Shown here piece by piece: positions 1,380-32,169 of a stretch of DNA of 64,000 nucleotides. Both the position numbers and the translations under genes were made by a program. A model generated the notes under the pieces. The model was not told the origin of the DNA. It was given only the letters and a program-made list of their open reading frames with translations, and searched no databases. Location: positions 2,433 through 66,432 of the forward strand of contig CACJOY010000005.1 of the NCBI GenBank assembly GCA_902595125.1. The letters are read 5' to 3'. The DNA comes from an uncultured Pelagibacteraceae bacterium (GTDB lineage Bacteria; Pseudomonadota; Alphaproteobacteria; Pelagibacterales; Pelagibacteraceae). How positions within the stretch are numbered: position 1 is the stretch's first letter; every line of letters starts with the position of its first letter.

Positions 1380-1403
1380 AGATCAAGAAAGATAGAGCTG
1401 ATT

Positions 1404-1439
1404 GGAACGAAACGAACGAAACGAAATGGAAATGAAATG
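1404..1439 (+). repeat. Imperfect short tandem repeat (GAAC/GAAAC/GAAAT units) running into the pnp start codon
   Basis: GGAACGAAACGAACGAAACGAAATGGAAATGAAATG read directly. Confidence 0.8.
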
Positions 1440-3509: not shown

Positions 3510-3516
3510 TAAAATA

Positions 3517-6909: not shown

Positions 6910-6931
6910 CTTTTGTCTTTTTTTATCAGTT

Positions 6932-7717
6932 CTAAGAAAAATTTTTAGGATCTGGCATCCCGACTTTATTATATCCAGCATCAACATAATGAATTTCACC
7001 CGTGACTCCGTTGGCAAGGCTGCTTAATAAATATAGTGCTGAATTCCCAACGTCATGGATATCCACGTTTCTTTTTAGTAAAGAATGGTCTTCATTCCAT
7101 TTATATAGGAATTTTGCATCTCCAATGGCTGAAGCAGCTAATGTTTTAATAGGTCCTGCACTTATTGCATTTACTCTCATACCTTTAGCACCCAAGTCTC
7201 TTGCAAGATACTTAACGCTAGATTCTAAAGCAGCCTTACAAACACCCATTACATTGTAATTTGGGATAGCTTTATTTGCTTCGTAACTTAGAGTGATCAG
7301 ACTTCCACCTTCCTTCATCACTTTAGATGCTTCTTTTGCAACTTCCGTAAATGAGAAACATGAAATTAACATGCTTCTTAAAAAGTTTTCTCTTGTAGTG
7401 TTTAAATATTCACCAGATAATTCTGACTTATCTGAAAATGCAATTGCATGAACTACAAAATCAATTTCACCCCATTGAGATTTTACATCTTCAAATAATT
7501 TTGTTACGTCTTCTTTTTTTTCAACATCACAGCTAAATGTTACTTTTGAATTTAATTTTTCAGCTAAAGGAATTACTCTTTTTTTTAAAGCATCACCAAG
7601 ATAAGTGAATGCAAGTTCAGCTCCAGCTTCTGCAAGTTTTTGTGAAATACCCCATGCAATAGATCTCTCATTGGCAACACCCATAATTAATCCTTTTTTA
7701 CCTTTCATTAAACTCAT
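6932..7717 (-). CDS. fabI: Enoyl-ACP reductase (NADH)
   Basis: GLIMGVANERSIAWGI, YNVMGVCKAALE, RVNAISAGPIKTLAA. Confidence 0.97.
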   Translation of the reverse strand: MSLMKGKKGLIMGVANERSIAWGISQKLAEAGAELAFTYLGDALKKRVIPLAEKLNSKVTFSCDVEKKEDVTKLFEDVKSQWGEIDFVVHAIAFSDKSELSGEYLNTTRENFLRSMLISCFSFTEVAKEASKVMKEGGSLITLSYEANKAIPNYNVMGVCKAALESSVKYLARDLGAKGMRVNAISAGPIKTLAASAIGDAKFLYKWNEDHSLLKRNVDIHDVGNSALYLLSSLANGVTGEIHYVDAGYNKVGMPDPKNFS

Positions 7718-7719
7718 AT

Positions 7720-8931
7720 TTAAACCTTTTCAAAAATTAAAGCAGCATTAGTTCCACCAAAACCAAAGCTATTTGACATTACTGTATTTAAAGTTGCACC
7801 AGTTTCTGTTTTTGCAACTATTGGAAATTTTTTTGCCTCTTCATCCATTTCATTTATATTTGCTGATCCAGCAATAAAATTATTTTTCATCATGATTAAA
7901 CAATAAATTGCTTCATGAACTGACGCAGCTCCTAATGGATGACCCGATAAAGATTTTGTTGAACTAATTTTTGGAATATTATCTCCAAAAGTATTTTTAA
8001 CAGAATTTAATTCTGTAATGTCTCCAACTGGAGTAGAAGTTCCGTGAGTATTAATATAATCAATTTTATTTTTAGCTGTAGCCATTGCCATTTGCATACA
8101 TCTTACAGCTCCTTCACCTGATGGTGCTACCATATCATATCCATCTGAAGTTGCTCCATAACCAGTTAATTCCGCATATATTTTAGCACCTCTTGCTTTA
8201 GCATGTTCGTATTCTTCAAGCACTAATACACCGCCACCACCAGCAATTACAAAACCATCTCTAGTTTTATCGTACGCTCTTGATGCAGTCTCTGGAGTAT
8301 CATTATATTTTGATGATAGAGCGGTCATGGCATCAAACATTGCAGTCATGGCCCAATGTATTTCTTCACTACCACCTGCAAATACAACATCTTGTTTACC
8401 CATTTGAATTAACTCCATAGAGTTACCTATACAGTGTCCGCTAGTTGCACATGCAGAACTCATTGTATAATTTGTTCCTTTAATTTTAAAAGGAACTGCT
8501 AATGTTGCAGATGCTGTACTTGCCATTGTTCTTGGCACAATAAAAGGTCCCATTAACTTTGGGGTTTTCGCTCTAGTTTTATCTGCTGCTAGAATTACAT
8601 TTTCAATTGAAGGTCCTCCTGAACCCATTACAATTCCAGTTTTAAAATTACTTACTTCTTTTTCTTCAAGTCCAGAGTCTGCAATCGCTTCTTTCATTGC
8701 AATGTAATTATAAGCAGATCCTGAACCCATAAATCTGATTGTTTTTCTGTCGATATGGTCTTCAAGTTTTATTTTTGGCTTACCATGTACATGACTTTTT
8801 AAATTGTGTTCTTTGTATTCTTCACTAAATGATATCCCAGATTTAGAATTTAAAAGAGATTGATGAACTTCTTCTTGATTGTTACCTAAACAAGATACCA
8901 CTCCTAAACCTGTAACCACTACCCTTCTCAT
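7720..8931 (-). CDS. fabB: Beta-ketoacyl-ACP synthase I
   Basis: [46 protein letters not shown]. Confidence 0.97.
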
Positions 8932-9431
8932 TATTTAAATAGACCTACTTTTAAGCTATCCGCTGAATATATTTTTTTGTCATCAGCTAATACCACTCCA
9001 TTAGCTAAGCCGACAGTTGTCCCTCCTGGAGACATAATTTTTTTCATATCAATTTCATATCTTACTAATTTTATGTTTTGTAAGACTTCACCAGTAAATT
9101 TCACAGTTCCAACACCCAAAGCCCTTCCCTTTCCTGGGTTTCCTATCCATCCTAAGTAAAAACCAACCAGTTGCCACATAGCATCAAGACCTAAACATCC
9201 TGGCATCACTGGGTCTTCTCTAAAATGGCAATCAAAAAACCACAGATCTTTTTTAATATCTAATTCAGCTTTTAAACATCCTTTTTTGAAAGCTCCTTTA
9301 TTATCATTAATTTCTGTTATTCTATCAAACATGAGCATAGGAGGAAGAGGTAACTTTGCATTTCCTGGCCCAAAAAGCTTTCCTTCACCACAATTTAGAA
9401 GCTCGTCATATGAGTAAGAGTTTTTTTTCAT
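8931..9431 (-). CDS. fabA: 3-hydroxydecanoyl-ACP dehydratase/isomerase
   Basis: [38 protein letters not shown]. Confidence 0.98.
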
Positions 9432-9491
9432 AAACTTGATTACTCCTTATTTACTTGATTTTAGCATTTTATAATATAATTATAATAGTAG

Positions 9492-9508
9492 TTTAGAATA
9501 ATTATAAC
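9492..9508 (+). promoter_or_regulatory. Irr-binding ICE-like operator upstream of irr
   Basis: TTTAGAATAATTATAAC matches the alphaproteobacterial ICE consensus TTTRGAAYNRTTCYAAA at 15 of 17 positions. Confidence 0.55.
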
Positions 9509-9526
9509 TAACAATATGTTAAAATC

Positions 9527-9925
9527 GTGAAATATATAGATAAACTAAGAAATTCTGGATTAAGACCTACAAAACAAAGACTTCAAATATGTGAAGTCTT
9601 ATTTAGTACCGAAAAAACATTTCATTTTACTATAAACGACTTGGAACAAAAAATTAAAAATAAGATAAACAATAAAATATCTTTAGCAACTATTTATAAT
9701 ACAGTTCATGCATTTGAAAAAAAAGGATATTTAAAACAAATTCCTATAAATTCAAACCAGACCTATTTTGATACCAACGTTACAGATCATCATCATTTTT
9801 ATGATTTAAAAAATGAAAAACTCATCGACCTAGAAAATTCAGATGTAGGACCTATAAACATTAAAAGAAAAATTAATGGAAAGAAAATTAAGTCTGTTGA
9901 AGTTCTAGTGAAACTTGAAGATTAA
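9527..9925 (+). CDS. irr: Fur-family iron response regulator (Irr type)
   Basis: GLRPTKQRL, HFT, ISLATIYNTV, YFDTN..DHHHFY; divergent from fabA as for rhizobial irr; GTG start. Confidence 0.8.
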   Translation: MKYIDKLRNSGLRPTKQRLQICEVLFSTEKTFHFTINDLEQKIKNKINNKISLATIYNTVHAFEKKGYLKQIPINSNQTYFDTNVTDHHHFYDLKNEKLIDLENSDVGPINIKRKINGKKIKSVEVLVKLED

Positions 9926-9958
9926 GTTATCAATTAATCCAGCGTCATTATTAACCAA

Positions 9959-9987
9959 TTGACACTTGTTTAGAATCATTATAAACA
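9959..9987 (+). promoter_or_regulatory. sigma70-type katG promoter overlapped by an ICE-like operator (9969-9985)
   Basis: TTGACA at 9959-9964, then TTTAGAATCATTATAAA (16/17 match to ICE consensus) spanning the spacer and -10 region. Confidence 0.65.
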
Positions 9988-10018
9988 GGATTTACACTAA
10001 ATTACATGGGGAAAATAA

Positions 10019-12256
10019 ATGAGTACAGAAAATTTAAAAGATAAATCTTTTAATGTTAAAGAATTAAGTAAGTGTCCTTTCACAGGAGCAGGAACACCTG
10101 CAAAATTTTCTGCAGGAAGAGGTCAATCAGTGAGAGACTTTTGGCCAAATAGCTTAAATCTAAAAATTCTTAGTCAGCACTCAAATCTATCTAATCCCAT
10201 GGATAAAAAATTTAGTTATGCAAAAGAATTTAAAAAACTAAATTATGATGCTTTAAAAAAAGATTTAAAAAAACTAATGACAGACTCACAGGAATGGTGG
10301 CCAGCTGATTATGGTCATTATGGACCTCTTTTTATAAGATTAGCTTGGCACGCTGCAGGAACATATAGAACTGGTGATGGCAGAGGTGGAGCTGGAACAG
10401 GAAATCAAAGATTTGCACCACTTAATTCTTGGCCAGATAACGTCAACTTGGATAAGGCAAGATTGCTTCTTTGGCCAATTAAAAAAAAATATGGGAATAA
10501 GATATCTTGGGCAGATTTATTTATATTAGTTGGTAATGTTGCACTAGACTCAATGGGATTTAAAACATTTGGTTTTGGCGCTGGAAGAACAGATATTTGG
10601 GAACCAGAGGATGATATTTACTGGGGATCAGAAAAAGAAATGTTAGGTGTAGAAAGATACACTAAAAAAAGAGATTTAGAACAACCACTTGGTGCTTCAC
10701 ACATGGGTTTGATATACGTAAATCCACAAGGTCCTGATGCTAATCCAGATCCAAAGCTGGCGGCCCATGATATTAGAGAAACATTCGGTAGAATGGCCAT
10801 GAATGACTATGAAACAGCTGCATTAGTGGCTGGTGGTCATACATTTGGAAAATCACATGGAGCAGCGCCTGAGTCGCACAAAGGTCCTGATCCAGAAGCT
10901 TCTAGAATTCAAGATCAGTCTACTGGATGGAACAGCGGATATAAATCTGGAAAAGGTGTTGATACAATAAGCAGCGGTATAGAGGGAGCTTGGACACAAA
11001 ATCCTATTCAATGGGATATGGGCTATTTAGACTGTCTTTATGATCACGAATGGGAGCTTACAAAAAGTCCAGCAGGCGCTCATCAGTGGACACCAAAGAA
11101 AAATGGACAAAAGATAAAAATGGTTCCTGATGCACACAATAAAAATGTTTTTCATCCTCCTATGATGCAAACAACTGATATTTCAATGAAAGTTGATCCA
11201 AGTTACGGGCCTATTACAAAACATTTTCATAAAAATCCAAAAGAATTTCATGATGCATTTGCAAGGGCGTGGTTTAAGCTAACTCATAGAGATATGGGTC
11301 CTAAAGCTTGCTATTTGGGTAAAGATATTCCTAAAGAAGAGCTGATTTGGCAAGATCCAATTGATAAACCAAATTATAAATTAAAAACAAAAGATATCAA
11401 TGATTTAAGATCAAAAGTTTCTAAATCTAAATTATCAGTTTCTGAATTGGTGTCTACTGCATGGGCTTCAGCATCTACTTTTAGAGGCTCTGATAAAAGA
11501 GGTGGGGCTAATGGAGCAAGAATAATGTTAGAGCCACAAAAAAATTGGAAAGTTAATAACCCGAAGCAACTCTCTAAAGTTATCAAAGTTTTGGGGAAAA
11601 TTAAGGACAAATTTGACAGCAAAAAGAAAAACGTTTCGATGGCAGATTTAATTGTTTTAGCTGGTGGTGTTGGTATTGAAATAGCAGCAAAGAAAGCTGG
11701 ATATAAAATAAATGTACCATTCTCAGCAGGTAGGGGAGATGCTAGACAAGACCAAACTGATATCAACTCTTTTGGTTTGTTAGAACCACAAGCAGACGGT
11801 TTTAGAAATTATTTAAATGGTGAAAAATCCATCGTATCTGCAGAAGAAAAATTAATAGACAAAGCTCAATTAATGGGTTTAACGGCTCCTGAAATGATAG
11901 TGCTTATAGGTGGGATGCGTGTTTTGGACACAAACTATGACAATTCTAAAGATGGTATATTTACAAATGCACCTGGTGCGCTAACCAATGATTACTTTTT
12001 AAACTTATTAGATATGAATACAACTTGGAAAGAAACAGACAAATCAGAGCAAAAATTTGTTGGAATTGATCGAAAAACAAAAAAAACCAAATGGAAAGGT
12101 ACGAGAGTTGACCTGATACTTGGTTCTAATTCCCAACTTAGAGCTCTAGCTGAAGTTTATGCGTGTGACGATTCCAAAGATAAATTTATTAAAGATTTTA
12201 CAGCTGCATGGGTCAAAGTGATGAATGCAGACAGGTTTGACTTAAGATTAAATTAA
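10019..12256 (+). CDS. katG: Catalase-peroxidase
   Basis: [60 protein letters not shown]. Confidence 0.99.
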
Positions 12257-12278
12257 AAAAAATGAAATTGAAATAAAT

Positions 12279-12875
12279 ATGGCAACAATTAACTTTGATG
12301 ACTTTTATGAAGTACCAAATCTTAATTTTGATATTTCAAGATTACAATCTGATTTAAACAAGATATTAAAAAATAAAAAATTTAATTCTCCTGGTGTGAC
12401 ACATTTTGGAGCAATTTCACTAAATCAAATTCCAAATGATGAAAATTCTATCAAAGGTAACAATATAAGAGGAAAATACTGGACTATAGCTGACGAAACT
12501 GGCAAGGAAGTTGCAAGAGATATTGATATAGATGAGTCTAAGTATACCCAATTAGTTCCTGAATTTGAAAATACTTACTTTAAAGAGGTTTATGAAATCT
12601 TAATGAAAAAATTTAAACTAGGTAGAGTAAGGCTATTATTAAAAGAACCAAGATCAACTTTAAGTTGGCATAAAGATCCAGAATGTAGACTTCATGTACC
12701 AATAATAACTAACAAGGGATGTTCAATGGTAATCGAAAATGTTGCTAAACACTTACCTGCAGATGGTAAAGTTTGGATAACAAATAACACTAAATATCAT
12801 AATTTTTTTAATGGTGGTGAACAAGCAAGAATTCATTTAGTAGCATGCGTTTTAGAAAGTCCTTTTAAAAATTAA
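12279..12875 (+). CDS. Aspartyl/asparaginyl beta-hydroxylase-like Fe(II)/2-oxoglutarate oxygenase
   Basis: HxD...H facial triad in cupin context: LSWHKD...RLHVPI...NNTKYHNFFNGG...RIHLV. Confidence 0.7.
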   Translation: MATINFDDFYEVPNLNFDISRLQSDLNKILKNKKFNSPGVTHFGAISLNQIPNDENSIKGNNIRGKYWTIADETGKEVARDIDIDESKYTQLVPEFENTYFKEVYEILMKKFKLGRVRLLLKEPRSTLSWHKDPECRLHVPIITNKGCSMVIENVAKHLPADGKVWITNNTKYHNFFNGGEQARIHLVACVLESPFKN

Positions 12876-12886
12876 TTATATTAATT

Positions 12887-13330
12887 TTAATTAATTGATC
12901 CCCAAATATTGTTTGTTTTAATCCAACCACTAAATTTTCCAGTTTCTATTTTACACCAATTTTTTTCACATTTTTTAACAATTATTACTCTCCCTTTTTT
13001 GATTTTTGCAATTGGTCTTGAAAAATTTGATGGTTTTTTAAATAAAATTTTATCCTCTAAGGGGATTATAGAATTATTTGTCTTAAGTTGTGACCAATGT
13101 ATCCATCCACTATTATTTTTTAAATCTATTATCCTTCTCCAGTTTTCTTTTTTATCAATTTGTTTAATTGGCAGATTAATTTTCTTATAAACAAATTTTA
13201 TTGGAGACTCAAAACTCGGTCCATATCTTACATTTACCTTGCCTTTTTTTAATGAAAGAAAAGTTTCATCTGAGACGACATGAAATGGAAAAAAAACCCA
13301 AATTAAAATCAAAAAGATAAATGTTTTCAT
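12887..13330 (-). CDS. Exported SH3-domain protein (two bacterial SH3 repeats)
   Basis: Signal peptide, then VNVRYGPS...P...ENWRRI.D...GWIH and a second repeat ending WCKI...GWI; conserved alphaproteobacterial family. Confidence 0.85.
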   Translation of the reverse strand: MKTFIFLILIWVFFPFHVVSDETFLSLKKGKVNVRYGPSFESPIKFVYKKINLPIKQIDKKENWRRIIDLKNNSGWIHWSQLKTNNSIIPLEDKILFKKPSNFSRPIAKIKKGRVIIVKKCEKNWCKIETGKFSGWIKTNNIWGSIN

Positions 13331-13344
13331 AATTTAGTTTTACA

Positions 13345-14088
13345 TTATCTTTGATATTTTTTAAATTTTATCTTTCTAAAATTTAAATTTAAAAGATCTA
13401 TAATCAATATTTGATTTTTCAGGTTTTGGCCAATTTCCATTATCATTTTTAGAGCTTCGTTTGCTTGTGTTGTTCCTACTATTGAAGCAGTTGTGCCAAG
13501 AACTCCATCAAATTCACAATTTAAAATATCATCAGAAATTTTTTTCTCTTGATAAAAATTTTTTAACGATGCTGTTTTTTTATCTTTAAAATCAAATGTA
13601 AATACATGGCCATCAAATTTACTTATTGCTCCTGTAATTAATTTTTTTTTTAATTTTATACAACAATCATTAATCAAGAATTTAGTTTTAAAATTGTCTG
13701 AACCATCAATTACAATTTCGTAATTTTCAATTATATTTCTAATATTATTCTTATTAAGTCTTGATTTGTAAGTTTTAATTTTAGTAAGTGGATTTATTTC
13801 TTTGAGTTTTTTTGCCGCCACACTAACTTTTGATTTATTTATATCTTTAGAACTAAATAAACTTTGTCTGTGAATATTTGAAAGATCAACTATGTCATTG
13901 TCTATAAGACCAATGGTGCCAATGCCAGCTCTTACCAGGTTTTCTGCAGCAGGACACCCCAAGCCACCAACCCCAACAATTAAAATTTTAGAGGATAAAA
14001 TTTTTTTTTGACCCTTTGCACCTATATTTTTAAGAACTAATTGTCTTGAAAATCTTTCAATTTGAGATTTGCTTAGACTGCCTTTCAT
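13345..14088 (-). CDS. moeB: HesA/MoeB/ThiF-family adenylyltransferase
   Basis: RFSRQLVL..IG..GQ, VGVGGLG, DNDIVDLSNIHRQ, DGSDNFKTKFLIND. Confidence 0.85.
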   Translation of the reverse strand: MKGSLSKSQIERFSRQLVLKNIGAKGQKKILSSKILIVGVGGLGCPAAENLVRAGIGTIGLIDNDIVDLSNIHRQSLFSSKDINKSKVSVAAKKLKEINPLTKIKTYKSRLNKNNIRNIIENYEIVIDGSDNFKTKFLINDCCIKLKKKLITGAISKFDGHVFTFDFKDKKTASLKNFYQEKKISDDILNCEFDGVLGTTASIVGTTQANEALKMIMEIGQNLKNQILIIDLLNLNFRKIKFKKYQR

Positions 14089-14522
14089 TTTCCTGTAGAA
14101 CCAAAACCACTATCTCCCCTTGATGTTTCTGGTAAATTATCTGTTTCCTTTAATTCCATTTTAACAATTGGCGTTAAGACCATTTGAGCAATTCTATCAC
14201 CATTATTAATAGCGAAATCCACCTTGCCATGATTAAAAAGTATTACTTTAATTTCCCCTCTATAATCGCTATCAATTGTTCCAGGTGTATTTAAGACACT
14301 AATATTTTTTTTAACCGCGAGACCAGATCTAGGTCTTATTTGTATCTCATATTCTTTAGAAAAAGCAATGGTTATTCCAGTAGGGACCAAACAAGACGTT
14401 TTTGATTTAATATTTATTGGTTTTTTAATGAATGCCATTAAATCCATTCCTGAAGCACCAGAAGTTTTGTATTCAGGAAGTTTCACATTTGGATCTAATT
14501 TTTTAATCAGTACTTTAACCAT
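14085..14522 (-). CDS. dut: dUTP pyrophosphatase
   Basis: ASGMDL, QIRPRSGLA, GTIDSDYRGEI, RGDSGFGSTG. Confidence 0.98.
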   Translation of the reverse strand: MVKVLIKKLDPNVKLPEYKTSGASGMDLMAFIKKPINIKSKTSCLVPTGITIAFSKEYEIQIRPRSGLAVKKNISVLNTPGTIDSDYRGEIKVILFNHGKVDFAINNGDRIAQMVLTPIVKMELKETDNLPETSRGDSGFGSTGK

Positions 14523-15727
14523 TAGTTAATTTGATTAATTATTCTATCAACAATTTCCTCTGATATTTCTGATTTTTTTTTAAATGCAAGTTTTTCTTTA
14601 TTATTTTTTTTATTTTTGTAATAAACGATTACTTCATTATAGTCAGATTCAAAACCACTGTCTTTTTTCGAAACATCATTAGCTATTATCCAATCACAGT
14701 TTTTGTTTTCTAATTTTAATCGTGCATTTTTATCAATATCATTAGTTTCAGCTGCAAAACCTATAACTAATTTTGGTCTCATGGAATTGTGATTTGAAAC
14801 GTAATTTAATATGTCAATATTTTTTTCTAAGTTTAGAGTTAATTTGTCTTGTTTCTTAATTTTATTTGTGTCTTTTTTATTAACTCTAAAATCAGCAACA
14901 GCTGCAGAAAATATTGCTATATCTACAGGCAAGCTTTCTTGTGTTGCTTTAAACATCTCTTCAGCTGTTTCAACTTTAATTAAGTTTATTTCATCACCAA
15001 TATCTAAATTAGTTGGTCCGGTAATTAATGTTGTTTCAAAACCTCTTTTTGATAAAGATTTTGCAATTTCATAGCCTTGTTTACCGCTTGATTTATTTGA
15101 TATAAATCTAACTGGGTCAATGTACTCTTTTGTAGGACCAGCAGTTACTAGTGCTTTAATTTTTTTATGTTTTTTTTGATATAAAAAAAAATTATTTATT
15201 TCATTTAAAATAATTAATGGATCTGACATTTTTCCTTCTCCATACTCACCACAAGCCATATCACCAATAACTGGACCAATAGTTTTATAACCAAAACTTT
15301 TTAGCTTCTTTAAATTATCTTTTGTTGACTTATGTTCCCACATTCTAACATTCATTGCTGGAACTAAAAAAGTTTGTTTATTAGATGCTAATATCACAGT
15401 TGATGCTAAATCTTCAGATGAACCTTGGCTAAGTTTTGAAATAGTATTTGCAGTAGCTGGCACAACAATGATTAGGTCAGCCCATCTTGATAAACTAATG
15501 TGATCCATTTCATTTTCATTTTCAACACTAAAAAGATCTTCGTAAACTTTACCTTGTGACAAAGAGGCAATCGATAAAGGCGTTACAAATTCCTTGGCGC
15601 TTTTAGTTAAAATAGTTTTAATCTCAGCATTATTTTTTTTAAACAACCTAATTGTCTCTAAACTCTTATATGCAGAAATTCCGCCACAAATTATAAATAG
15701 AATTTTCTTATTTGATAAAACTGTCAT
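14522..15727 (-). CDS. coaBC: Bifunctional phosphopantothenoylcysteine decarboxylase/ligase
   Basis: GGISAYKS, HISLSRWAD, PAMNVRMW, MACGEYGEG, VTAGPTKEYIDPVRFISNKSSGKQG, GFAAET. Confidence 0.97.
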   Translation of the reverse strand: MTVLSNKKILFIICGGISAYKSLETIRLFKKNNAEIKTILTKSAKEFVTPLSIASLSQGKVYEDLFSVENENEMDHISLSRWADLIIVVPATANTISKLSQGSSEDLASTVILASNKQTFLVPAMNVRMWEHKSTKDNLKKLKSFGYKTIGPVIGDMACGEYGEGKMSDPLIILNEINNFFLYQKKHKKIKALVTAGPTKEYIDPVRFISNKSSGKQGYEIAKSLSKRGFETTLITGPTNLDIGDEINLIKVETAEEMFKATQESLPVDIAIFSAAVADFRVNKKDTNKIKKQDKLTLNLEKNIDILNYVSNHNSMRPKLVIGFAAETNDIDKNARLKLENKNCDWIIANDVSKKDSGFESDYNEVIVYYKNKKNNKEKLAFKKKSEISEEIVDRIINQIN

Positions 15728-15735
15728 GATCAGAA

Positions 15736-17304
15736 TTAAAATACCAATAGTCCTAAAATTACAAGGACTAATAAACTAATAATAGACTGATTTCTCAAAG
15801 CAGTCATTTCTGTTTTTTTTATATTTAATGCCGTATAAGAATTAGAATCTTGAGGGATTTGACCGCTAGCCAAATATGTTAGGGCTTGATTTGCTTTATC
15901 CATTATTTCTGGAAATTCAGGTAATCTTTTAATTGCTTCTGTGGTATTTTGAATTGTTTCATTAATAGTAGTCATTGGGTTTTTGGTTTCTTTTAACCAA
16001 TTTTCAAGAACTGGCTTTGAAGTTGTCCAAATATTTGTGTTTGGATTAAGTTTTCTTGCAACACCTTCCACAACAACCATAGTTTTTTGCAACATAAGAA
16101 GTTGGGGTTGTGTTTGCATATTAAATTTTTCTGTAACATCAAATAATTGTTTTAATAATTTACCACCAGAAATATCCTTCACAGCTTGCCCAAAAATTGG
16201 CTCTCCTATAGATCTAAGTGCTTGAGCCAGATCGTCAATAGGAACATTTTTAGGGACTAAGCCTGCCATTAAATGTACCTCAGCAACTTTTCTATAGTCT
16301 CTTTGTATAAAACCAAATAATATCTCTGCAAGAAACCTTTTACTCATTTTATCAAGCCTACCCATTATTCCAAAGTCAATGGGAACAATGTGGCCATTAT
16401 TATTAATAAATATATTTCCTTGGTGCATATCAGCGTGGAAAAAACCATCTCTAACAGCATGTCTTAAAAAACTTTGAATAATATTTTCTGCAATTTTCTC
16501 AGTATTTAAATTTCTTTTTTTAAGTTCTTCAGTTTCCCTGATTGAAACACCATCAACCCAATCCAATGTCATTACATTTTCACTTGTAAAATTCCAATAA
16601 ATTTGAGGAACTTGGAATCCAACATCATTTTTAGTATTTTCAGCGTATTCATTAGCAGCGGCTGCTTCGAATCTTAAATCCATTTCTAGATTTGTGATTT
16701 CTTTAAGTAAAAAAACTACCTCAACTAGTTTTAGTCTTTTTGTTTTTTTAACAATAGACTCAACTAGAAAAGCAAAAAGCATCATAGCGTCTATTTCTTC
16801 GTTGAATATTTTTTTTATATCTGGTCTTAAAATCTTTATAGCCACATCTTTAATTATTCCACCATCGTTAATTTGTGCTTTATGGACCTGTGCTATTGAT
16901 GCGGCTGCTACAGGCTCACTCAAGTTAATTATAGAGTTATAAGTATTTTCACCTAAATCATTTTTTATTATTTCTTTTGCATGAAGAAGTGAAAAAGGAG
17001 GTAATCTGTCCTGAAGATTTTCAAGTTTTTTTGAAAGTTCTTCACCAATAATATCTGGTCTTGTAGCTAAAAATTGACCAAGTTTAATAAATGTTGTGCC
17101 CATTGACTCTAACGAGTCAGACAATCTTTCTCCCTCATCTTTATCTGTATTAAATCTTTTTTTAGAAGAAAATGAAAATGATAGAATTTTAAATAATATT
17201 TTTATAATTAAAGGAGGCTTTTTGAATTTTGAAGTTATATTTAAAATATCTGACATAGCCACTTTTCTTGCAAGTTTGAATAAGATAATTATTTTTCTTA
17301 ACAT
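15736..17304 (-). CDS. ubiB: Ubiquinone biosynthesis kinase-like protein UbiB
   Basis: GTTFIKLGQFLATRPDI, AAASIAQVH, GFFHADMHQGN, DFGIMGRL. Start placed at 17304 (TAATG overlap with ubiE) rather than 17316. Confidence 0.95.
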   Translation of the reverse strand: MLRKIIILFKLARKVAMSDILNITSKFKKPPLIIKILFKILSFSFSSKKRFNTDKDEGERLSDSLESMGTTFIKLGQFLATRPDIIGEELSKKLENLQDRLPPFSLLHAKEIIKNDLGENTYNSIINLSEPVAAASIAQVHKAQINDGGIIKDVAIKILRPDIKKIFNEEIDAMMLFAFLVESIVKKTKRLKLVEVVFLLKEITNLEMDLRFEAAAANEYAENTKNDVGFQVPQIYWNFTSENVMTLDWVDGVSIRETEELKKRNLNTEKIAENIIQSFLRHAVRDGFFHADMHQGNIFINNNGHIVPIDFGIMGRLDKMSKRFLAEILFGFIQRDYRKVAEVHLMAGLVPKNVPIDDLAQALRSIGEPIFGQAVKDISGGKLLKQLFDVTEKFNMQTQPQLLMLQKTMVVVEGVARKLNPNTNIWTTSKPVLENWLKETKNPMTTINETIQNTTEAIKRLPEFPEIMDKANQALTYLASGQIPQDSNSYTALNIKKTEMTALRNQSIISLLVLVILGLLVF

Positions 17305-18008
17305 TAAATTTTCCATCCACTATGTATTGAAACTATCCCGCCAGATAAATTTCTATAACTACATTTTTTAAAACCACTATCCATCATTAATGAAATTAAT
17401 TCATCTTGATTAAGAAAATTATTTATACTTTTGATAAGATATTCGTAAGGCTCTTTTTCTCCTACAACTAATTTTCCTATTGAGGGTATAATTTTGGAAT
17501 AATTTTTATAGATAAAATTTAAACCAGAATTATCTACTTTAGAAAATTCAAGGCATAAAAAACGACCACCTGGTTTTAGCACTCTATAAGCCTCTGACAG
17601 TACTTTTTTTAAATTTTTTGTATTTCTTAATCCAAAGCTTATTGAATAAAAATCAAACGAGCCTTTTGAAATTGGAAGACTTTCAGCGCTAGAAATAATC
17701 CAATTTAGCTGTTTGAAATCTTTCAATTTTTCTTTACCTTTTTTAATCATTCCTTGGTTTGGATCTGCGCAAGTAACTTCTGAGGATTTGTTAACATATT
17801 TTAAAAAAAGTTTTGCTATATCGCCTGTACCACATGCCACATCTATTAATTTTTGATTTTTTGAAGCATTCATCATGTTTATTAAATTTTTCTTCCATAA
17901 ACGGTGAACCCCAAGAGACATAAAATCATTCATCAAATCATATTGGTCATAAACTTGATTAAAGACATTTTGTACTAGTCCTTTTTTATTTTGTAGATAT
18001 TGTTGCAT
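17304..18008 (-). CDS. ubiE: Ubiquinone/menaquinone C-methyltransferase
   Basis: YDLMNDFMSLGVHRLWK, DVACGTGD, SFGLRN, RVLKPGGRF.CLEFS. Confidence 0.96.
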   Translation of the reverse strand: MQQYLQNKKGLVQNVFNQVYDQYDLMNDFMSLGVHRLWKKNLINMMNASKNQKLIDVACGTGDIAKLFLKYVNKSSEVTCADPNQGMIKKGKEKLKDFKQLNWIISSAESLPISKGSFDFYSISFGLRNTKNLKKVLSEAYRVLKPGGRFLCLEFSKVDNSGLNFIYKNYSKIIPSIGKLVVGEKEPYEYLIKSINNFLNQDELISLMMDSGFKKCSYRNLSGGIVSIHSGWKI

Positions 18009-18040
18009 AAAATTAAATTATATATTGAATATAGTATCAA

Positions 18041-18904
18041 ATGCCAGAATTACCAGAAGTAGAAATAGTTAGACGGTCGTTAGAAAAAAAGATTAAACAA
18101 AAAAAAGTAATAAAAGTGTTAGTTAGAAATAGAAATTTAAGGTTTAAGATACCGTTAAATTTTTCAAATTTCTTAAAAAATCAAAAAATAATTAAAGTAG
18201 AAAGAATTTCAAAATATTTAATTTTATATTTATCAAAAAAAGGATATTGCGTTTTACATCTCGGAATGTCTGGAACAATCCATATTATTGAAAATAAAAA
18301 AAAAAAAATGTTAACTAATACGAGTTTTTATAGCTCACCTTTATTACCAAAAAAACACAATCACTTAGAAATTATATTTAAAAATTTAAAAGTTGTTTAT
18401 AATGATCCACGAAGATTTGGATTTTTTCAAATAATAAGAAATAAAGATTTATTAATTAAAAAATTTAGTCGTCTTGGTCCCGAACCATTCAATCCAAAGT
18501 TTAATGAAAATTATGTTATTAATTATTTAAAAAAAAAAGAAAAAAAAATTAAAAATTTTTTATTAGATCAAAATTTTGTATCTGGAATTGGTAATATTTA
18601 TGCAAGTGAAATCTTGTTTTTGAGCAAGATTAATCCTAATAAAAAAGCAGGTCTTGTGAATAAAATAGAATGTAAAGAAATCATTAAAAATTCAAAAAAA
18701 GTTCTTTCTGATGCAATAAATAAAGGAGGCTCAAGTATAAGAGATTTTAAAAATATTTCAGGTAAAGAAGGAAATTTTCAAAAAAATTTTAAAGTTTATC
18801 AAAGAGAAGGTTTAGCTTGTAAAAGATTGTTTTGTACTGGATTTATACAAAAAAAAATTATTTCTAATAGATCCACATTCTTTTGTAATAATTGCCAAAA
18901 ATAA
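18041..18904 (+). CDS. mutM: Formamidopyrimidine-DNA glycosylase
   Basis: MPELPEVE, HLGMSG, DPRRFG, GIGNIYASE and a C-terminal zinc finger. Confidence 0.98.
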   Translation: MPELPEVEIVRRSLEKKIKQKKVIKVLVRNRNLRFKIPLNFSNFLKNQKIIKVERISKYLILYLSKKGYCVLHLGMSGTIHIIENKKKKMLTNTSFYSSPLLPKKHNHLEIIFKNLKVVYNDPRRFGFFQIIRNKDLLIKKFSRLGPEPFNPKFNENYVINYLKKKEKKIKNFLLDQNFVSGIGNIYASEILFLSKINPNKKAGLVNKIECKEIIKNSKKVLSDAINKGGSSIRDFKNISGKEGNFQKNFKVYQREGLACKRLFCTGFIQKKIISNRSTFFCNNCQK

Positions 18905-18916
18905 TAAATTATTTGA

Positions 18917-18945
18917 TTGACCAATATAAATTCTGCAGTTATACC
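18917..18945 (+). promoter_or_regulatory. Putative sigma70 promoter of rpsT
   Basis: TTGACC-N17-TATACC ending 9 nt before the ATG at 18955. Confidence 0.55.
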
Positions 18946-18954
18946 CCTGCGCGT

Positions 18955-19215
18955 ATGGCAAATACTAAATCAGCAATTAAAAGAATTCGAAGAATATCAA
19001 AACAGACTGCTGTTAATAAAGCTAGAAAAAGTAGATATAAGAATGCACTAAAGAAAATGAACTTGCTGATTGAAAATAAAAAAAAATCAGATGCTCTAAA
19101 GTTCTTACCTAAGTTGAATTCTGAACTAACAAAGATTGCAAAGACAGGAATCATTAAAAGACAAAACGCTTCAAGAAATGTCTCAAGAATTACTAAAAAG
19201 ATTGCATTAATATAA
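18955..19215 (+). CDS. rpsT: 30S ribosomal protein S20
   Basis: MANTKSAIKRIR...NKARKSR...ASRNVSRI. True start is the internal ATG at 18955, not 18892. Confidence 0.96.
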   Translation: MANTKSAIKRIRRISKQTAVNKARKSRYKNALKKMNLLIENKKKSDALKFLPKLNSELTKIAKTGIIKRQNASRNVSRITKKIALI

Positions 19216-19440
19216 GTTAAATACTTCTGGTTGATTCAACTTAAAGCATACGCATCATATATGAATCATAAATCTTAATTTACAATATTTAGACTTAGTA
19301 AATTTTAGTTTATTTTATTTCAATCATAAATTTTATTTATTTTTTAATACATAAAAAAAATTTTTGTCAAAGAATTTTTGAAAAAAAAAAAAATACACAA
19401 TCATAGATTTTATTTTTTTTTGATTATCACAATTTATTTG

Positions 19441-19469
19441 TTGCAAAACTTTCATTAAGGTTCTATCTC
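19441..19469 (+). promoter_or_regulatory. Putative dnaA promoter
   Basis: TTGCAA-N17-TATCTC, 15 nt before the ATG. Confidence 0.45.
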
Positions 19470-19484
19470 AAGTTTCCCCTAAAA

Positions 19485-20894
19485 ATGAATAATTCTTATA
19501 AAAATAAAAAATTAAACGCTAATGAGTTAGATTGGAATTTAATCCAGAATGATTTGCGGAATAACTTAGGAAAAGATATTTATGAAAGTTGGCTAAAAAA
19601 AATAAGTTTTGTAGAAGAATTAAATAATTATCTAATATTATCTGTACCAACAAGATTTATAAGGGATTGGATTACTTCTAGGTACTTAGACCAAATTTTA
19701 CAATTAATAAAAAATTATAAGAAGGATTTGATAAGAATAGAATTTAAAATTGATGAAAAAATTGACAACAAAGAAATCAATATTAAGGAATTTAATAAAA
19801 AAGAAAGTGTAGAAAATATTTCTTTTATAAAAGATTCTTATCTTCAGTATAATCGTATAGATCCAAATAAAAGGTTTGACAACTTTATCATTGGATCAAG
19901 TAATAAATTAGCTTATGAAGCTTCTTTAAAAGTTTCAGAAAATATTTCTCATTATAATCCACTTTATATTTATGGAGGTGTGGGAATGGGAAAAACACAT
20001 TTATTAAATTCTATTGGTTTTGAATTGAAAAAAAATAATAAAGTAATGTTTATTTCTGCAGAACGTTTTATGTATCAATTTGTAAAATCAATTAAATCAA
20101 ACGAAATGGTTAAATTTAAAGAGTATTTCAGAAATACAGACGTTTTATTAATTGACGACATACAGTTTATGAACGGAAAAGAAGCAATGCAAGAGGAGTT
20201 TTTTCATACTTTTAATGCATTAATTGATAAAGGATCACAAATAATTCTTTCTGCTGATAGAGCACCAAATAAACTGTCTCGTATTCAAGAAAGAATTAAA
20301 TCTAGATTTTCTGGTGGCCTAGTTGTTGATATTCAGAAACCAGATTATGACTTAAGAAAAAAAATTGTTGAAAAAAAAACTGACGAATTAAGCAGCTTGT
20401 ATCCTGACAAATTAAAAATTTCGAAAGAAATTCAGGATTTTATTAGCACTGAAATCTCAGCAAGCGTTAGAGAGCTCACAGGTGCAATCAATAGGATAGT
20501 TTCTTTTTCTAGAATTTATAATAAAATTCCAAATTTAGCTGAAACAAAAATAGTTCTAAAAGACTTATTAAATCTCTCAGAAAATAAAGTTACAATCGAT
20601 TTAATCCAAACTTTGGTTTGTAAATATTTTAAAATAAGTAAAAATGAAATGCTATCATCACGTAGATCAAGATATTTGGTTAGACCACGACAGACTGCTA
20701 TCTATTTAACTAAAATCTTAACATCAAAATCACTGCCTGAAATTGGAAGAGAATTCTCCAATAGGGATCATACCACAATAATACATTCCGTAAAAACCAT
20801 TGAAAAACTCAAGGAAAATGATTCCTCAATGGTTGATAGTATAAACAAGTTAAAAAATCAGATCTTATATAATAATAAAGAAAATGAAATTTAA
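19485..20894 (+). CDS. dnaA: Chromosomal replication initiator DnaA
   Basis: NPLYIYGGVGMGKTHLL, LLIDDIQF, QEEFFHTFN, RPRQ.AIYL, RDHTTIIH. Confidence 0.99.
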   Translation: MNNSYKNKKLNANELDWNLIQNDLRNNLGKDIYESWLKKISFVEELNNYLILSVPTRFIRDWITSRYLDQILQLIKNYKKDLIRIEFKIDEKIDNKEINIKEFNKKESVENISFIKDSYLQYNRIDPNKRFDNFIIGSSNKLAYEASLKVSENISHYNPLYIYGGVGMGKTHLLNSIGFELKKNNKVMFISAERFMYQFVKSIKSNEMVKFKEYFRNTDVLLIDDIQFMNGKEAMQEEFFHTFNALIDKGSQIILSADRAPNKLSRIQERIKSRFSGGLVVDIQKPDYDLRKKIVEKKTDELSSLYPDKLKISKEIQDFISTEISASVRELTGAINRIVSFSRIYNKIPNLAETKIVLKDLLNLSENKVTIDLIQTLVCKYFKISKNEMLSSRRSRYLVRPRQTAIYLTKILTSKSLPEIGREFSNRDHTTIIHSVKTIEKLKENDSSMVDSINKLKNQILYNNKENEI

Positions 20895-29236: not shown

Positions 29237-30937
29237 ATGCAATTAAGTAGAATAAACAGTTTAGTAGAACTTTTTTTTACAAAGTATAAAGAAATAGATT
29301 CAGTTTCTGAAAAACCATTTTTAAAATGGTTAAAAGAAAATGAAAAAGATTTTTTAACTTGGCAACAAGTTGCATCAAAAATTCAAATTTTATCTGAACA
29401 TTTAAGAACAAAGTTGAATAAAGGAGACCGGTGCATCTTATTATCTGAAAATCGACCTGAATGGCTTATCTCTGATATATCAATAATGAATGCAGGTGGT
29501 GTCACGGTACCATTGTTTACAACTTATTCAGAGAAAGACTATGAGTACATTATTAATGATTGTAAGCCAAAAATTTGTATCGTCTCTAATGAAATCCAAT
29601 TAAAAAAAATTGAAAAATTTATCTCTGATGAGATTAAAGTTTTATCCATTGAAAACTTAAATGAAAGAGTTGAGAATATAGAAAATATTTTTAATGAACA
29701 TTCAAAAAAAAATAAATCAAATCCTCATATTAGTTTTAATCAAAATCTTGAAAGAAAAGATCTTGCTTGCATCATTTATACATCTGGCACAACTGGCAAT
29801 CCTAAAGGAGTAATGCTTAGTCATGGAGGAATTTTATCAAATTGTGAAGGTGCTCAAGAAATATTAAATCAATTAGTTCAAAATAGTGAACCTACTTTTT
29901 TGACATGGTTACCGTTATCTCATTCATATGAGCATGCAGTTCAATTTGTTCAAATTTCGCTTGGTGCAAAAATTTATTATGCTGAAAGTCTAGAGAAGTT
30001 GTTATCAAATATGTCTATTGCAAAACCTACAATTATGACAGCTGTCCCAAGATTTTATCAAAATTTATACAGCAAAATTTCAATTAATTTTTCAAAACAG
30101 AAAGGTTTCAAAAAAAAATTGATTTCATCCACGATTTCACTCGGAATTAAAAAACTTAATAATGAGAATTTAGCATTTAGAGAAAAATTGATTAATTTCT
30201 TTTGTGAAAAACTAGTAAGAAAAAAGATTAAAAATCAGTTCGGTGGAAAACTAAAGGCCTTTGTATCTGGGGGTGGCGCCTTAGACCAAAAAATTGGAGA
30301 ATTTTTAAACGCTATAGGATTACCCACTCTTCAAGGTTACGGCCTTACCGAGGCCTCACCTGTTGTGAGCTGTAATATTCCTGGAAAAATCAGAATCGAC
30401 ACAGTTGGGCCTCCTTTTAAAACAAACCAGGTAAATATAGCTGAAGATGGTGAAATTTTAGTAAAAGGTGAAAATGTCATGCTTGGTTATTGGAATATGA
30501 AAAAAGAGACATCTGATGTCATAATAGATGGCTGGTTGCATACTGGTGACATTGGAGAGATCACTGAAGATGGAAATTTAAAAATCACTGATAGAAAAAA
30601 AGAAATAATAGTTAGTCTTGGTGGAGATAACATTTCACCATCTAAAATTGAAAATTTATTATGTTTAAATGAAAAAATTAAACAAAGTTTTGTTTATGGA
30701 GATAAGAAAACTTATTTGGTAGCGTTGATTGTTACTGAAAGTACAGAAAATAGAAAAGAAATTGAAATTTTTTTAGAAAATTTAAATAAAACTTTATCTT
30801 TAGTAGAAAAAGTTAAAAAATTTAAATTAATTAAAGAAGAATTTTCAATTGAAAATGGAATGTTAACACCAACATTAAAATTAAAAAGAAAAAAAATTTT
30901 AGAAAAATATAAAGAAGATTTAGAAAAACTTTATTAA
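29237..30937 (+). CDS. fadD: Long-chain fatty acid-CoA ligase (AMP-binding)
   Basis: IIYTSGTTGNPKGVMLSH, LPLSHSYE, QGYGLTE, WLHTGDIG, TPTLKLKR. Confidence 0.9.
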   Translation: MQLSRINSLVELFFTKYKEIDSVSEKPFLKWLKENEKDFLTWQQVASKIQILSEHLRTKLNKGDRCILLSENRPEWLISDISIMNAGGVTVPLFTTYSEKDYEYIINDCKPKICIVSNEIQLKKIEKFISDEIKVLSIENLNERVENIENIFNEHSKKNKSNPHISFNQNLERKDLACIIYTSGTTGNPKGVMLSHGGILSNCEGAQEILNQLVQNSEPTFLTWLPLSHSYEHAVQFVQISLGAKIYYAESLEKLLSNMSIAKPTIMTAVPRFYQNLYSKISINFSKQKGFKKKLISSTISLGIKKLNNENLAFREKLINFFCEKLVRKKIKNQFGGKLKAFVSGGGALDQKIGEFLNAIGLPTLQGYGLTEASPVVSCNIPGKIRIDTVGPPFKTNQVNIAEDGEILVKGENVMLGYWNMKKETSDVIIDGWLHTGDIGEITEDGNLKITDRKKEIIVSLGGDNISPSKIENLLCLNEKIKQSFVYGDKKTYLVALIVTESTENRKEIEIFLENLNKTLSLVEKVKKFKLIKEEFSIENGMLTPTLKLKRKKILEKYKEDLEKLY

Positions 30938-31053: not shown

Positions 31054-31082
31054 TTGACATAACGTGTATAAAAAAATAAAAA
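31054..31082 (+). promoter_or_regulatory. Putative promoter of the small basic peptide gene
   Basis: Perfect TTGACA, 17-nt spacer, TAAAAA; preceded by a long A/T tract (UP-element-like). Confidence 0.6.
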
Positions 31083-31134
31083 TAACATAACAGCGAATCA
31101 ATTTGATTCGTTTAACTAAAAAAGGGAGCTAAAG

Positions 31135-31212
31135 ATGCCTAAGAGAAGAAAAAAAGCAAAGAAAGCTAAGAAAAAAGCTAAGAAAAAAGCTAAGAAAAGA
31201 AGAAGAAGATAA
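31135..31212 (+). CDS. 25-aa Lys/Arg/Ala-rich peptide MPKRRKKAKKAKKKAKKKAKKRRRR; not in ORF track
   Basis: Hand translation; Shine-Dalgarno AGGGAG at 31123-31128, upstream promoter and downstream terminator; internal 12-bp repeat AAGAAAAAAGCT. Confidence 0.72.
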   Translation: MPKRRKKAKKAKKKAKKKAKKRRRR

Positions 31213-31231
31213 TAACTTAGTATTCTTTATT

Positions 31232-31274
31232 AAAAACGCTTCTCATAACGTAAAGTGTGAGAGGCGTTTTTTTT
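31232..31274. terminator. Bidirectional rho-independent terminator between the small peptide gene and convergent carD
   Basis: AAAAACGCTTCTCATA...TGTGAGAGGCGTTTTTTTT: long stem with G-U pairs flanked by A and T tracts. Confidence 0.85.
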
Positions 31275-32169
31275 ATTCCTCTAAAGGTGTTTCATTATCT
31301 GTTTCCGCCTCAGTAATCGTATCTTCCACTTGAGGCAAGTTAGATGCTGAAGGTTTTGTTGATGGAGATGTTTTAGGTTGATCCACTAAGTTTCTTTTTA
31401 AGGCTTTGTCTAACTTTTTCTGGGTATCCTCTAAAGATATATTAAGTATAATTTGAAATTCTGATAATATTCTCTCATAAGCTTTTTCAAAAAGTTGTCT
31501 TTCACTATAAGATTGATCAACCATTAGATCATCACCTTTATTTAGGTCTCTCACCACCTCTGCAAGTTCATAAATTTTACCCGATGAGATCTTTGCTTCA
31601 TATTCTTGTGCCCTTCTACTCCACATAGATCTTTTTATTTTTGGTTTGCTTTTAAGAATAGAGATACATTTATTAACTTGGTTAATAGTTGCTAAGTGAC
31701 GAAGATGAGACTGTTTATTTACTGGAACCATTCCATTAGCTTTATCTTTTTCAAATTTTATAACATATGTTTCAACATCAATCCCACCAATGTTGATTTT
31801 TTTAAATTCTGTAATTTGACCCACACCATGTTTGGGGTATACAATGTAATCTTTTACTTTATATTCCCTCTTTTCTGTTTCTTGTTTTTTTACTTTTTTT
31901 ATTTCTGGCTTTATTTCGTTACTTTTTGAAATTCTTAGATTGTCTGTTTTTGTATCTGATTTAGTCTCAGCTTTATTTAACTGTTTTTTAATCTTATTTT
32001 TTTTAACTTTAGATTTTATTATTTTTTTTGACTTTTTTAGTAAAACTTTATTAGGATTTGATTTTGGTTTTTTAATTACTTTTTTTTTAACTTTTTTTAT
32101 TGTTTTTTTTTTAAATGTTTTCTTTAAAATACTTTTTAAACTTATCTTGCTCATCTTTATATTTTTCAT
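31273..32169 (-). CDS. carD: CarD/CdnL transcription factor with long Lys-rich N-terminal extension
   Basis: Core domain [41 protein letters not shown]. Exact start uncertain (32169 or 32154). Confidence 0.9.

Follow-up and report, generated by a model that had tools for sequence, protein, structure and literature searches.

A conserved gene for a short lysine- and arginine-rich peptide lies convergent to carD in SAR11 bacteria

The fadD-carD interval and its small open reading frame

The stretch of DNA studied here comprises 64,000 nucleotides of contig CACJOY010000005.1 from an uncultured Pelagibacteraceae bacterium (the window; all coordinates refer to it, forward strand, 5' to 3'). It has a GC content of 28.7% and, judged by gene content and best relatives, is SAR11 subclade Ia-like. 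Between a fadD-like gene and carD lies a small open reading frame (ORF) of 25 codons, for which a preliminary description had proposed a hidden stand-alone gene encoding a protamine- or histone-H1-like peptide. The locus has the following features:

31135..31212, + strand: coding sequence of the small gene, MPKRRKKAKKAKKKAKKKAKKRRRR, 25 aa, start ATG, stop TAA
31054..31059, + strand: -35 box TTGACA, kept nearly throughout Ia (in at least 80% of the 69 different upstream sequences)
31077..31083, + strand: -10-like element TAAAAAT, spacer of 17-18 nt, also present in the deep clade described below
31092..31112, + strand: 5'-proximal stem-loop of 9 bp in the predicted fold, AGCGAATCA-ATT-TGATTCGTT
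31123..31128, + strand: Shine-Dalgarno (SD) sequence AGGGAG, 6 nt upstream of the ATG
31232..31274, both strands: intrinsic terminator with a 16-pair stem, T8 tail on + and T5 tail on -
29237..30937, + strand: fadD-like acyl-CoA synthetase, 566 aa, the upstream neighbour on the strand of the small gene
31273..32169, - strand: carD (Pfam CarD_TRCF_RID and CarD_C), the convergent neighbour and synteny anchor

The peptide consists of 13 Lys, 6 Arg, 4 Ala and 1 Pro in addition to its initiator Met, with a computed mass of 3.1 kDa and a net charge of about +18 to +19. The ATG at 31135, the 25-residue product with its 19 K/R and zero acidic residues, the TTGACA-N17-TAAAAA promoter, the AGGGAG and the strong terminator had all been given in the preliminary description, and each is present exactly where it was placed. 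The small ORF is exceptional: its K+R fraction is 0.76, the next-best of the window's 218 ATG-initiated ORFs of 20-50 aa reaches 0.45, and none of 30 shuffled windows yielded an ORF this rich in K and R.

Conservation and length plasticity across SAR11

Synteny was anchored on carD, and a few kb (about 3-10 kb) around this gene were examined in each genome; subclade labels were established for HIMB058 (subclade II) and for named Ia strains. A plain search with the CarD protein is dominated by close relatives (the best 120 matches are all >84% identical), and distant CarDs were obtained by comparing the C-terminal half of CarD with representatives clustered at 50% identity.

For the Ia-like set, 80 species-level Pelagibacteraceae loci were fetched, and 78 of them have an intact small ORF convergent to carD (76 by a simple K/R filter and two behind an upstream in-frame ATG). 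The two remaining loci, L001 and L028, each lack one base of an A-run, for which homopolymer sequencing errors are the simplest explanation. When the loci are pooled with the results of a pattern scan, Ia contributes 144 distinct contexts with 57 intact ORF sequences and 32 peptides, which come in 13 different lengths between 22 and 36 aa, all in frame, and are restricted to K, R, A, T, S, P (at position 2) and the initiator M.

The ORF is also found outside Ia. Subclade II (HIMB058 and relatives, reached via the CarD representative P0134) has a convergent ORF in 76 of the 76 loci with sequence beyond carD, encoding peptides of 21-25 aa such as MAKRRKKAKKKTKKKAKKRRRRR. Metagenome contigs retrieved with a second representative, P0152, add several further SAR11-like clades with CarD proteins 57-85% identical to P0152; all but one of those loci that offer at least 139 nt of room have the small ORF, the exception (L333) being a 1-nt frameshift. 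The shortest products here have 19-20 aa (MAKKRKKAKKKKSSKKKRR), and the longest, built with PAKK/PAAKK repeats, have 48-58 aa (MAKKRKKAAKKKVAKKPAKRKVAKKKPAAKKRKPAAKKKAPAKKRKPAKKKTAKKRKR). The gene order fadD - small ORF - carD is kept in all SAR11 clades sampled, down to a FadD identity of 51%.

Altogether, 157 distinct ORF sequences were collected from core SAR11, all of them in frame. They encode 114 different peptides between 19 and 58 aa long, with an average composition of 52% K, 21% R, 16% A, 3% T, 2% P and 0.3% V and no D or E. A head M-(A/P)-K-(K/R)-(K/R)-K-K and an Arg-rich C-terminal end are preserved. Lengths differ in multiples of 3 nt through gain or loss of short K-rich repeat units (AKKK/TKKK in Ia) and fall into ranges of 19-20 aa in one clade, 21-25 aa in subclade II, 22-36 aa in Ia and 29-58 aa in another clade. 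The preliminary description had looked to synteny between fadD and carD across Pelagibacterales, and to the preservation of the reading frame in relatives, for a decision on whether the gene is real: the small ORF recurs at the same place in clade after clade, and its frame is maintained through the 13 Ia length variants as well as through the whole SAR11 range.

Several observations on individual loci are worth recording. Length is clade-specific (compare L342, L344 and L345 with L330-L341), with SS replacing A in the shortest clade (19-20 aa) and P-containing repeats in the longest (48-58 aa); length might conceivably be linked with salinity or ionic strength. The three loci with a 1-nt indel in an A6-A8 run (L001, ~810-890; L028, ~3960-4090; L333, ~3440-3560) either stop early or read through into products of 85-114 aa that lie antisense to carD; all three indels are probably homopolymer sequencing or assembly errors, and in L028, a finished chromosome, real slippage or phase variation is conceivable. 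The SAR11-type unit, together with its 5' untranslated region (5'UTR) and terminator, is also present on a 514-bp contig (L171, JABAAY010000122.1) from a 'Mycoplasmatales bacterium' bin, which is almost certainly a mis-binned SAR11 fragment.

Purifying selection and codon choice

Substitutions were counted on the edges of a minimum spanning tree that join close Ia variants of equal length. The 47 recent substitutions obtained in this way comprise 38 synonymous changes, 8 K<->R exchanges and a single A<->T exchange, and 38 of the 47 are at codon position 3. Under neutrality, changes that are synonymous or K<->R are expected to make up 27% of all possible changes (binomial p = 4e-25). Exchange between K and R is tolerated and a change to E, Q, N or I was never seen; in particular, A->G at codon position 1, which is equally probable and turns Lys into Glu, accounts for zero of the 47 cases. 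One-nucleotide indels in runs of A7-A9, expected to be the commonest mutation of all, were found in only 3 of about 220 loci.

Codon usage is also distinctive. AAG makes up 26-38% of the Lys codons in the small ORFs vs 11% in long ORFs, and GCT is favoured over GCA for Ala. The longest A-run in the small ORFs never exceeds 10 nt (mean 7.3), vs a mean of 10.9 after back-translation with the codon usage of the genome, where 43% of the ORFs reach 11 or more. The preference for AAG and GCT together with the capped A-runs fits avoidance of slippery poly(A) in a translated message. In the window, every Ala-Lys pair within 31150-31215 is encoded by GCT-AAG, so that the +2 frame runs into a TAA stop there. 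The ORF's own stop codon is directly followed by a second in-frame TAA (31213-31215); the tandem stop is TAG TAA in most relatives vs TAA TAA here. Off-frame stops, tandem stops and capped A-runs look like a design that limits the damage caused by ribosomes slipping on A-rich codons.

From these sequence comparisons, the small ORF is a genuine gene whose product is kept basic, acid-free and non-hydrophobic by strong purifying selection. The claim of a hidden stand-alone gene is thus strongly supported by the preserved frame, the synonymous and K<->R changes and the order-wide promoter, SD and terminator, which are described next.

Expression signals

Conservation upstream of the gene was scored over the 69 distinct Ia upstream sequences. 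The -10 block AAAAAAATAAAAATA is nearly invariant among them, and the spacer between the promoter boxes and the stretch just downstream vary freely; near-invariant -35 and -10 boxes around a variable spacer are the signature of a promoter. Among promoter-like matches in the surrounding 6 kb, this promoter has the top score of 10/12, tied with two other sites. The TTGACA box is also found in subclade II, in more divergent SAR11 clades and in the deep Pelagibacterales clade. Transcription is inferred to start near 31089-31091, which would leave 2-4 nt between the transcript's 5' end and the 9-bp stem-loop. In E. coli, 5'-terminal stem-loops protect mRNAs against 5'-end-dependent attack by RNase E.

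The hairpin stem CGAATCA/TGATTCG is invariant in Ia and its loop is variable; outside Ia, ACGAATCA is conserved, and the hairpin that comes after it has its stem shifted or its 3' arm changed. The palindrome GAATCA-N2-4-TGATTC has one copy in the window and one per locus. It was considered as a repressor operator or regulon site and rejected as such, since it is present in a single copy per locus and its 3' arm differs between clades; for the same reasons it is read as an RNA hairpin. The coding region itself is essentially unstructured in the predicted fold.

The SD block AGGGAGCTAAAGATG is invariant in Ia, and GGGAG or GGAG is present in every clade. By a crude test, 42 of the 51 long ORFs of the window have no SD-like sequence, and terminator-like sites within positions 1..20000 are weak and no more frequent than expected from shuffled sequence. 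The statement in the preliminary description that clear SD motifs and terminators are unusual in this DNA is therefore borne out. The terminator of the small gene is by far the strongest of the four terminator-like hairpins in the 6 kb. Across relatives, only 1 of 540 cells is broken in the 12 core pairs of its stem, with changes from G-C to G-U and one double change, and every clade has a GC-rich hairpin followed by a T run at this position, albeit of differing sequence. The stem begins only ~20 nt behind the stop of the small ORF and, as the carD stop codon (31273-31275) falls inside the T/A tract, directly follows carD on the opposite strand; the terminator thus serves both the small gene and the convergent carD. 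With these signals the small gene is probably transcribed independently and highly expressed.

A longer positional orthologue in a deep Pelagibacterales clade

The most distant CarD considered, P0161 (49% identical), comes from genomes that NCBI names Pelagibacterales. Its clade retains the order TerB - ferredoxin - carD and has a gene convergent to carD that was called by the annotation pipeline, with products of 60, 61, 82, 85 and 94 aa. These proteins (MEELKIIFAKAKKKAKKKAAPKKRKAAPKKKKKAAKKKAAPKRKNAAPKKKKKAAKRKKR and longer versions; MEELKIIFAKAKKKAKKKAAPKKRKAAPKKKKK...) have an 11-residue non-basic head MEELKIIFAKA and AAPKK repeats, in composition a classic histone-H1 tail as far as sequence goes. 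Upstream are a TTGACAC-N-TAAAAAT promoter and the same GAACGAATCAATTTGATTC hairpin. From the same position and the shared promoter and 5'UTR motifs, the deep-clade genes are taken as orthologues of the small gene. In this clade a tRNA gene, not fadD, precedes the small gene. One AAPKK orthologue (L402, ~3450-3560) is broken by ~100 N in its scaffold; the repeat region evidently breaks short-read assemblies, and the lengths of long forms in metagenome-assembled genomes (MAGs) may be unreliable.

Searches and similarity to known proteins

Five variants of 25, 25, 30, 36 and 67 aa have no match in Pfam or NCBIfam at E<=10, which covers the bS22/mS38 models (PF08213, COX24_C, and the AURKAIP1/COX24 domain of NCBIfam), and phmmer with the small peptide against the PDB returned 0 matches at E<=10. 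Longer orthologues were equally without a match in such profile and structure-sequence searches. As positive control, phmmer with Mycobacterium smegmatis bS22 recovers bS22 (E 1e-13) and mS38 (E 0.1-1). Rfam gave only sub-threshold chance matches on the locus, with leader families far below threshold. None of 21 variants was found by exact look-up in a collection of 15 billion proteins; this collection contains L36 (38 aa) and lacks both mycobacterial bS22 (33 aa) and the pipeline-called 85-aa orthologue, and with controls partly absent we make no claim that the small gene was never annotated. We found no description of the gene in the published literature, and Meyer et al. 2009 do not mention this intergenic region. 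It has probably been overlooked owing to its size below the length cut-offs of gene callers and to a product that trypsin would destroy: the usual minimum of gene callers is 90 nt, more than the 25-aa form, and trypsin would cleave a polybasic peptide into very small pieces.

Among known proteins, the H1-like proteins are the closest in character. Hc2 spans 165-237 aa and varies in size through lysine-rich pentamers (PMC2848022); KPAA-repeat peptides and AlgP's C-terminal domain bind DNA and vary in repeat number, the lysine-rich KPAA tail of AlgP localises to polyphosphate (polyP) granules and spaces them, and polycationic peptides form condensates with polyP (PMC9239181). Like Hc2 and AlgP, the SAR11 family is a K/A/P(T)-rich, acid-free and low-complexity repeat tract built from short tandem units of variable copy number, its longer orthologues share the AAPKK/PAKK motifs, and by analogy the same mode of action, non-specific electrostatic binding of DNA or polyP, would be expected. 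In contrast, H1-like proteins carry a folded or N-terminal domain (a winged helix in H1, helical in AlgP and Hc1), while the 25-aa form is tail-like throughout, matches no H1-family profile and is 3-10 times shorter. Core-SAR11 forms have moreover lost proline and have AKKK/TKKK units between an M(A/P)K(K/R)RKK head and the R-rich end; the 60-94-aa deep-clade orthologues are long enough to be called by gene callers, the 25-aa form probably not. With no domain and no profile match, the small gene is not placed in the H1, Hc1, Hc2 or AlgP families, though its product may act like an H1-type lysine-rich tail.

Protamines are likewise very short, extremely basic and fold-less, and DNA condensation would be a functional analogy. 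However, protamines are eukaryotic and Arg-dominated, with Arg typically above half of the residues, whereas the SAR11 family is Lys-dominated (13 K and 6 R in the window, 52% K vs 21% R overall), has no Cys or phosphorylation sites, no Pfam match and no homology to them. The preliminary description's polyanion binder in the manner of H1 tails or protamines therefore gains comparative support on the side of H1, from the AAPKK orthologue of the deep clade and the PAKK/PAAKK intermediates, and on the side of the protamines is left with a loose analogy; the binding itself is deduced from composition.

The ribosomal microproteins bS22, mS38 and eL41 are of the same size class (25-33 aa), have >60% K/R, were missed by annotation and are encoded by stand-alone genes. 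bS22 (~33 aa, 61% K/R, helical, non-annotated) came to light only through cryo-EM, in mycobacteria, Bacteroidetes and Borrelia; its authors predict it in more bacteria, as its rRNA pocket in the 30S, at h2/h27/h44/h45 and H68, is structurally conserved and holds mS38 in mitochondria, and it is nearly invariant in Borrelia, with one substitution across all groups (10.1101/2023.04.16.537070). The SAR11 peptide has no detectable sequence relation to bS22 or mS38, lacks their conserved M/H/L/Q positions and, unlike the length of bS22, which is near-invariant, its length is highly plastic. The hydrophobic or amphipathic transmembrane helix of a type I toxin or membrane-active peptide is lacking as well: Ala and the initiator Met are the only hydrophobic residues in nearly all 114 variants.

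Stand-alone polybasic ORFs headed MPKK(K/R)KKA, with a K/A/T body and a K/R-rich end, also turned up in other phyla:

L142:784-843, + strand: uncultured bacterium, 19 aa, MPKKKKKAKKMKKKHKKRK; clear SD, terminator with T run
L167:769-861, + strand: Nomurabacteria (Candidate Phyla Radiation, CPR), 30 aa, ~120 nt upstream of rpmA; terminator with T run
L231:1328-1405, - strand: Peribacteria (CPR), 25 aa, near eno; terminator with T run
L145:1875-2078, - strand: Acidobacteriota MAG, 67 aa; clear SD, hairpin only

Their genomic neighbourhoods are different from that in SAR11, and at such low complexity the likeness may be due to homology or to convergence. The strict pattern MPKKKKKA..KK has only 4 matches in 185,579 genomes, one of which is the tail of a topoisomerase I, so that by this pattern the family is not demonstrably widespread beyond Pelagibacterales. 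Candidate phage copies were rejected: 31 viral contigs contain KKAKKKAKKKAKK, but there it either ends a larger ORF or falls in a spurious frame, and no stand-alone orthologue is among them.

Proposed function of the peptide and alternative explanations

What is conserved in the family is charge, small spacers (A/T/G/S/P), the head and the Arg-rich end, but not length, register or repeat number. This argues for a disordered polycation that acts by bulk electrostatics and not for a ligand of a shaped site. We propose, by analogy and with about an even chance of being right, that the product is abundant and serves to neutralise and compact nucleic acid, above all that of the nucleoid. A transcript starting near 31090, flanked by the 5' stem-loop and the 3' terminator hairpin, would be a short stable mRNA of ~185 nt, efficiently translated from its strong SD. 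The initiator Met would be removed, given that position 2 is always Ala or Pro, which suits the specificity of methionine aminopeptidase; the window variant would then have a mass of 3002.8 Da. Binding to polyanions would depend on the charge of the peptide and not on sequence. Chromosomal DNA would be the main target, RNA would inevitably be bound too, and the peptide could serve as an encoded bulk counter-ion or condensing agent that, alongside HU, packs 1.3 Mb of DNA into a cell that is among the smallest of free-living ones. By a back-of-envelope estimate, it would take about 14,000 peptides to neutralise 10% of the chromosome phosphates; on rough, general figures, that many copies of a 25-aa peptide make up little of the cell's protein mass. 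Relative to its volume, a Pelagibacter cell contains far more DNA than one of E. coli (PMC10906006). A bolder version, to which we attach a rather low probability, is that of a 'macro-polyamine': a free, fold-less peptide of ~+19, specified by charge density and length only, in at least 10^4 copies per cell that is the main macromolecular counter-ion for nucleoid and ribosomes, miniaturised from an H1-like ancestor of 60-94 aa during streamlining and tuned in length by clade.

Several points weigh against the nucleoid proposal. Composition alone cannot separate DNA from rRNA, mRNA or polyP as preferred partner. Homology between the 25-aa and the 60-94-aa proteins rests on position and on promoter and 5'UTR motifs, as the protein sequences are not alignable, and Pfam has no match for the 58-82-aa forms, with no hits to the H1 (linker_histone, PF00538), Hc1 (PF07432) or Hc2 (PF07382) models. 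A Red Sea mdRNA-Seq paper that maps start sites on HTCC7211 places hupA among the top start sites, and with HU strongly expressed in SAR11 an extra compaction factor is not obviously needed; the in situ start-site tables of this paper list annotated genes only (PMC5069720).

The peptide could instead be bound to the ribosome as an analogue of bS22, mS38, eL41 or Thx, filling a cleft of the rRNA or coating it. bS22 is a precedent for a tiny, K/R-rich, unannotated component, mitochondria, of alphaproteobacterial descent, have mS38 at the equivalent site, strong expression signals would suit a stoichiometric ribosome component, and the Nomurabacteria look-alike is close to rpmA. On the other hand, the phmmer search of the PDB that links bS22 to mS38 is blank for the SAR11 peptide, lengths that vary 3- to 5-fold, from 19-58 aa to the 60-94 aa of the deep clade, are hard to fit to a fixed pocket, there are no hydrophobic or aromatic anchor residues, and the gene is outside ribosomal-protein operons. 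The tiny ribosomal protein that the preliminary description offered as alternative is thus disfavoured by the missing sequence match and the 3-fold length variation within the order, and we consider it unlikely. Still less probable is polyP or another non-nucleic polyanion as the partner, with the peptide neutralising or organising granules or forming coacervates. The H1-like tail of AlgP provides the analogy and the charge density of the peptide would bind polyP strongly, but the AlgP tail binds DNA too, the neighbours (fadD, carD, ferredoxin, TerB) provide no linkage to polyP genes, and in a P-limited cell the phosphates of DNA and RNA are likely to exceed those of polyP.

Two further explanations do without a functional peptide. 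Translation of a Lys/Arg-rich leader could sense Lys/Arg-tRNA supply or ribosome stalling and so control how far transcription runs through the shared terminator, antisense into carD. The convergence with carD and the shared terminator are kept order-wide even when the upstream neighbour changes, and the stop codon is close to the terminator stem, both in favour of such a regulatory ORF; yet the next gene is the convergent carD, so there is no co-oriented gene downstream to be attenuated, the fold contains no competing or anti-terminator helix, and tandem stops followed by a 16-bp terminator suggest that termination is efficient. That residue chemistry and A/P at position 2 are under selection, with length varying 3-fold, speaks for a functional product, and we regard this explanation as very improbable. 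That there is no gene at all, only an A-rich spacer or small RNA with an incidental ORF, is hardly credible: A-rich DNA in a genome of such low GC content does translate to Lys, and slippage of 9-, 12- or 15-nt units alone gives in-frame length change, but slippage is insufficient to explain the substitution pattern, with its bias to codon position 3 and its lack of K->E, together with the near-lack of 1-nt indels. This pattern effectively refutes the idea; in addition, ATG, SD and stop are conserved, the shuffled windows are empty and no Rfam family reaches threshold.

No bacterial lineage in the ocean is more abundant than SAR11, which also serves as a model of genome streamlining: each gene that it keeps is presumed to be worth its cost, and Lys/Arg-rich protein is costly in nitrogen. 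The order-wide conservation of this gene, together with expression signals that are the strongest in its neighbourhood, points to a missing piece of cell biology, namely the way in which a cell of ~0.01-0.05 cubic micrometres neutralises the charge of 1.3 Mb of DNA and of its ribosomes and packs them. The natural series from 94 to 19 residues shows how far an H1-like protein can shrink under selection. If the macro-polyamine proposal is true, the peptide would be a new class of chromatin- or RNA-associated component in the ocean's most abundant bacteria; if it is ribosomal instead, it would to our knowledge be the first lineage-specific ribosomal microprotein reported for Alphaproteobacteria. 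In either case, the gene is a concrete target for re-analysing marine metatranscriptomes and non-tryptic metaproteomes.

Neighbouring genes and another protein with a similar head

Only 4 nt separate a tRNA-Leu(CAA) gene (29148-29232, + strand) from the start codon of fadD at 29237, and no terminator was detected for the fadD-like gene itself. Ahead of CarD_TRCF_RID, CarD is extended at its N terminus by about 100 aa of lysine-rich, low-complexity sequence (31870-32169, - strand). The extension is also present in the CarD representative P0122, and the deep-clade CarD P0161 has a version of different sequence; many of the distant CarD representatives are 300-540 aa long. H1-like basic tracts are thus found both in the RNA-polymerase-binding CarD and in the product of the convergent polybasic mini-gene.

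A SAR11 protein of 469 aa (...VPYNLRQSGPTKVE(L/M)L(M/I)STRVRKSPYWHL...) also starts with MPKK(N/R)KKAKK and is apparently enzymatic; it was seen at the following positions:

L132:809, L135:5075, L157:2690, L172:6294, L176:4997 and others: 469-aa protein tagged with MPKK(N/R)KKAKK

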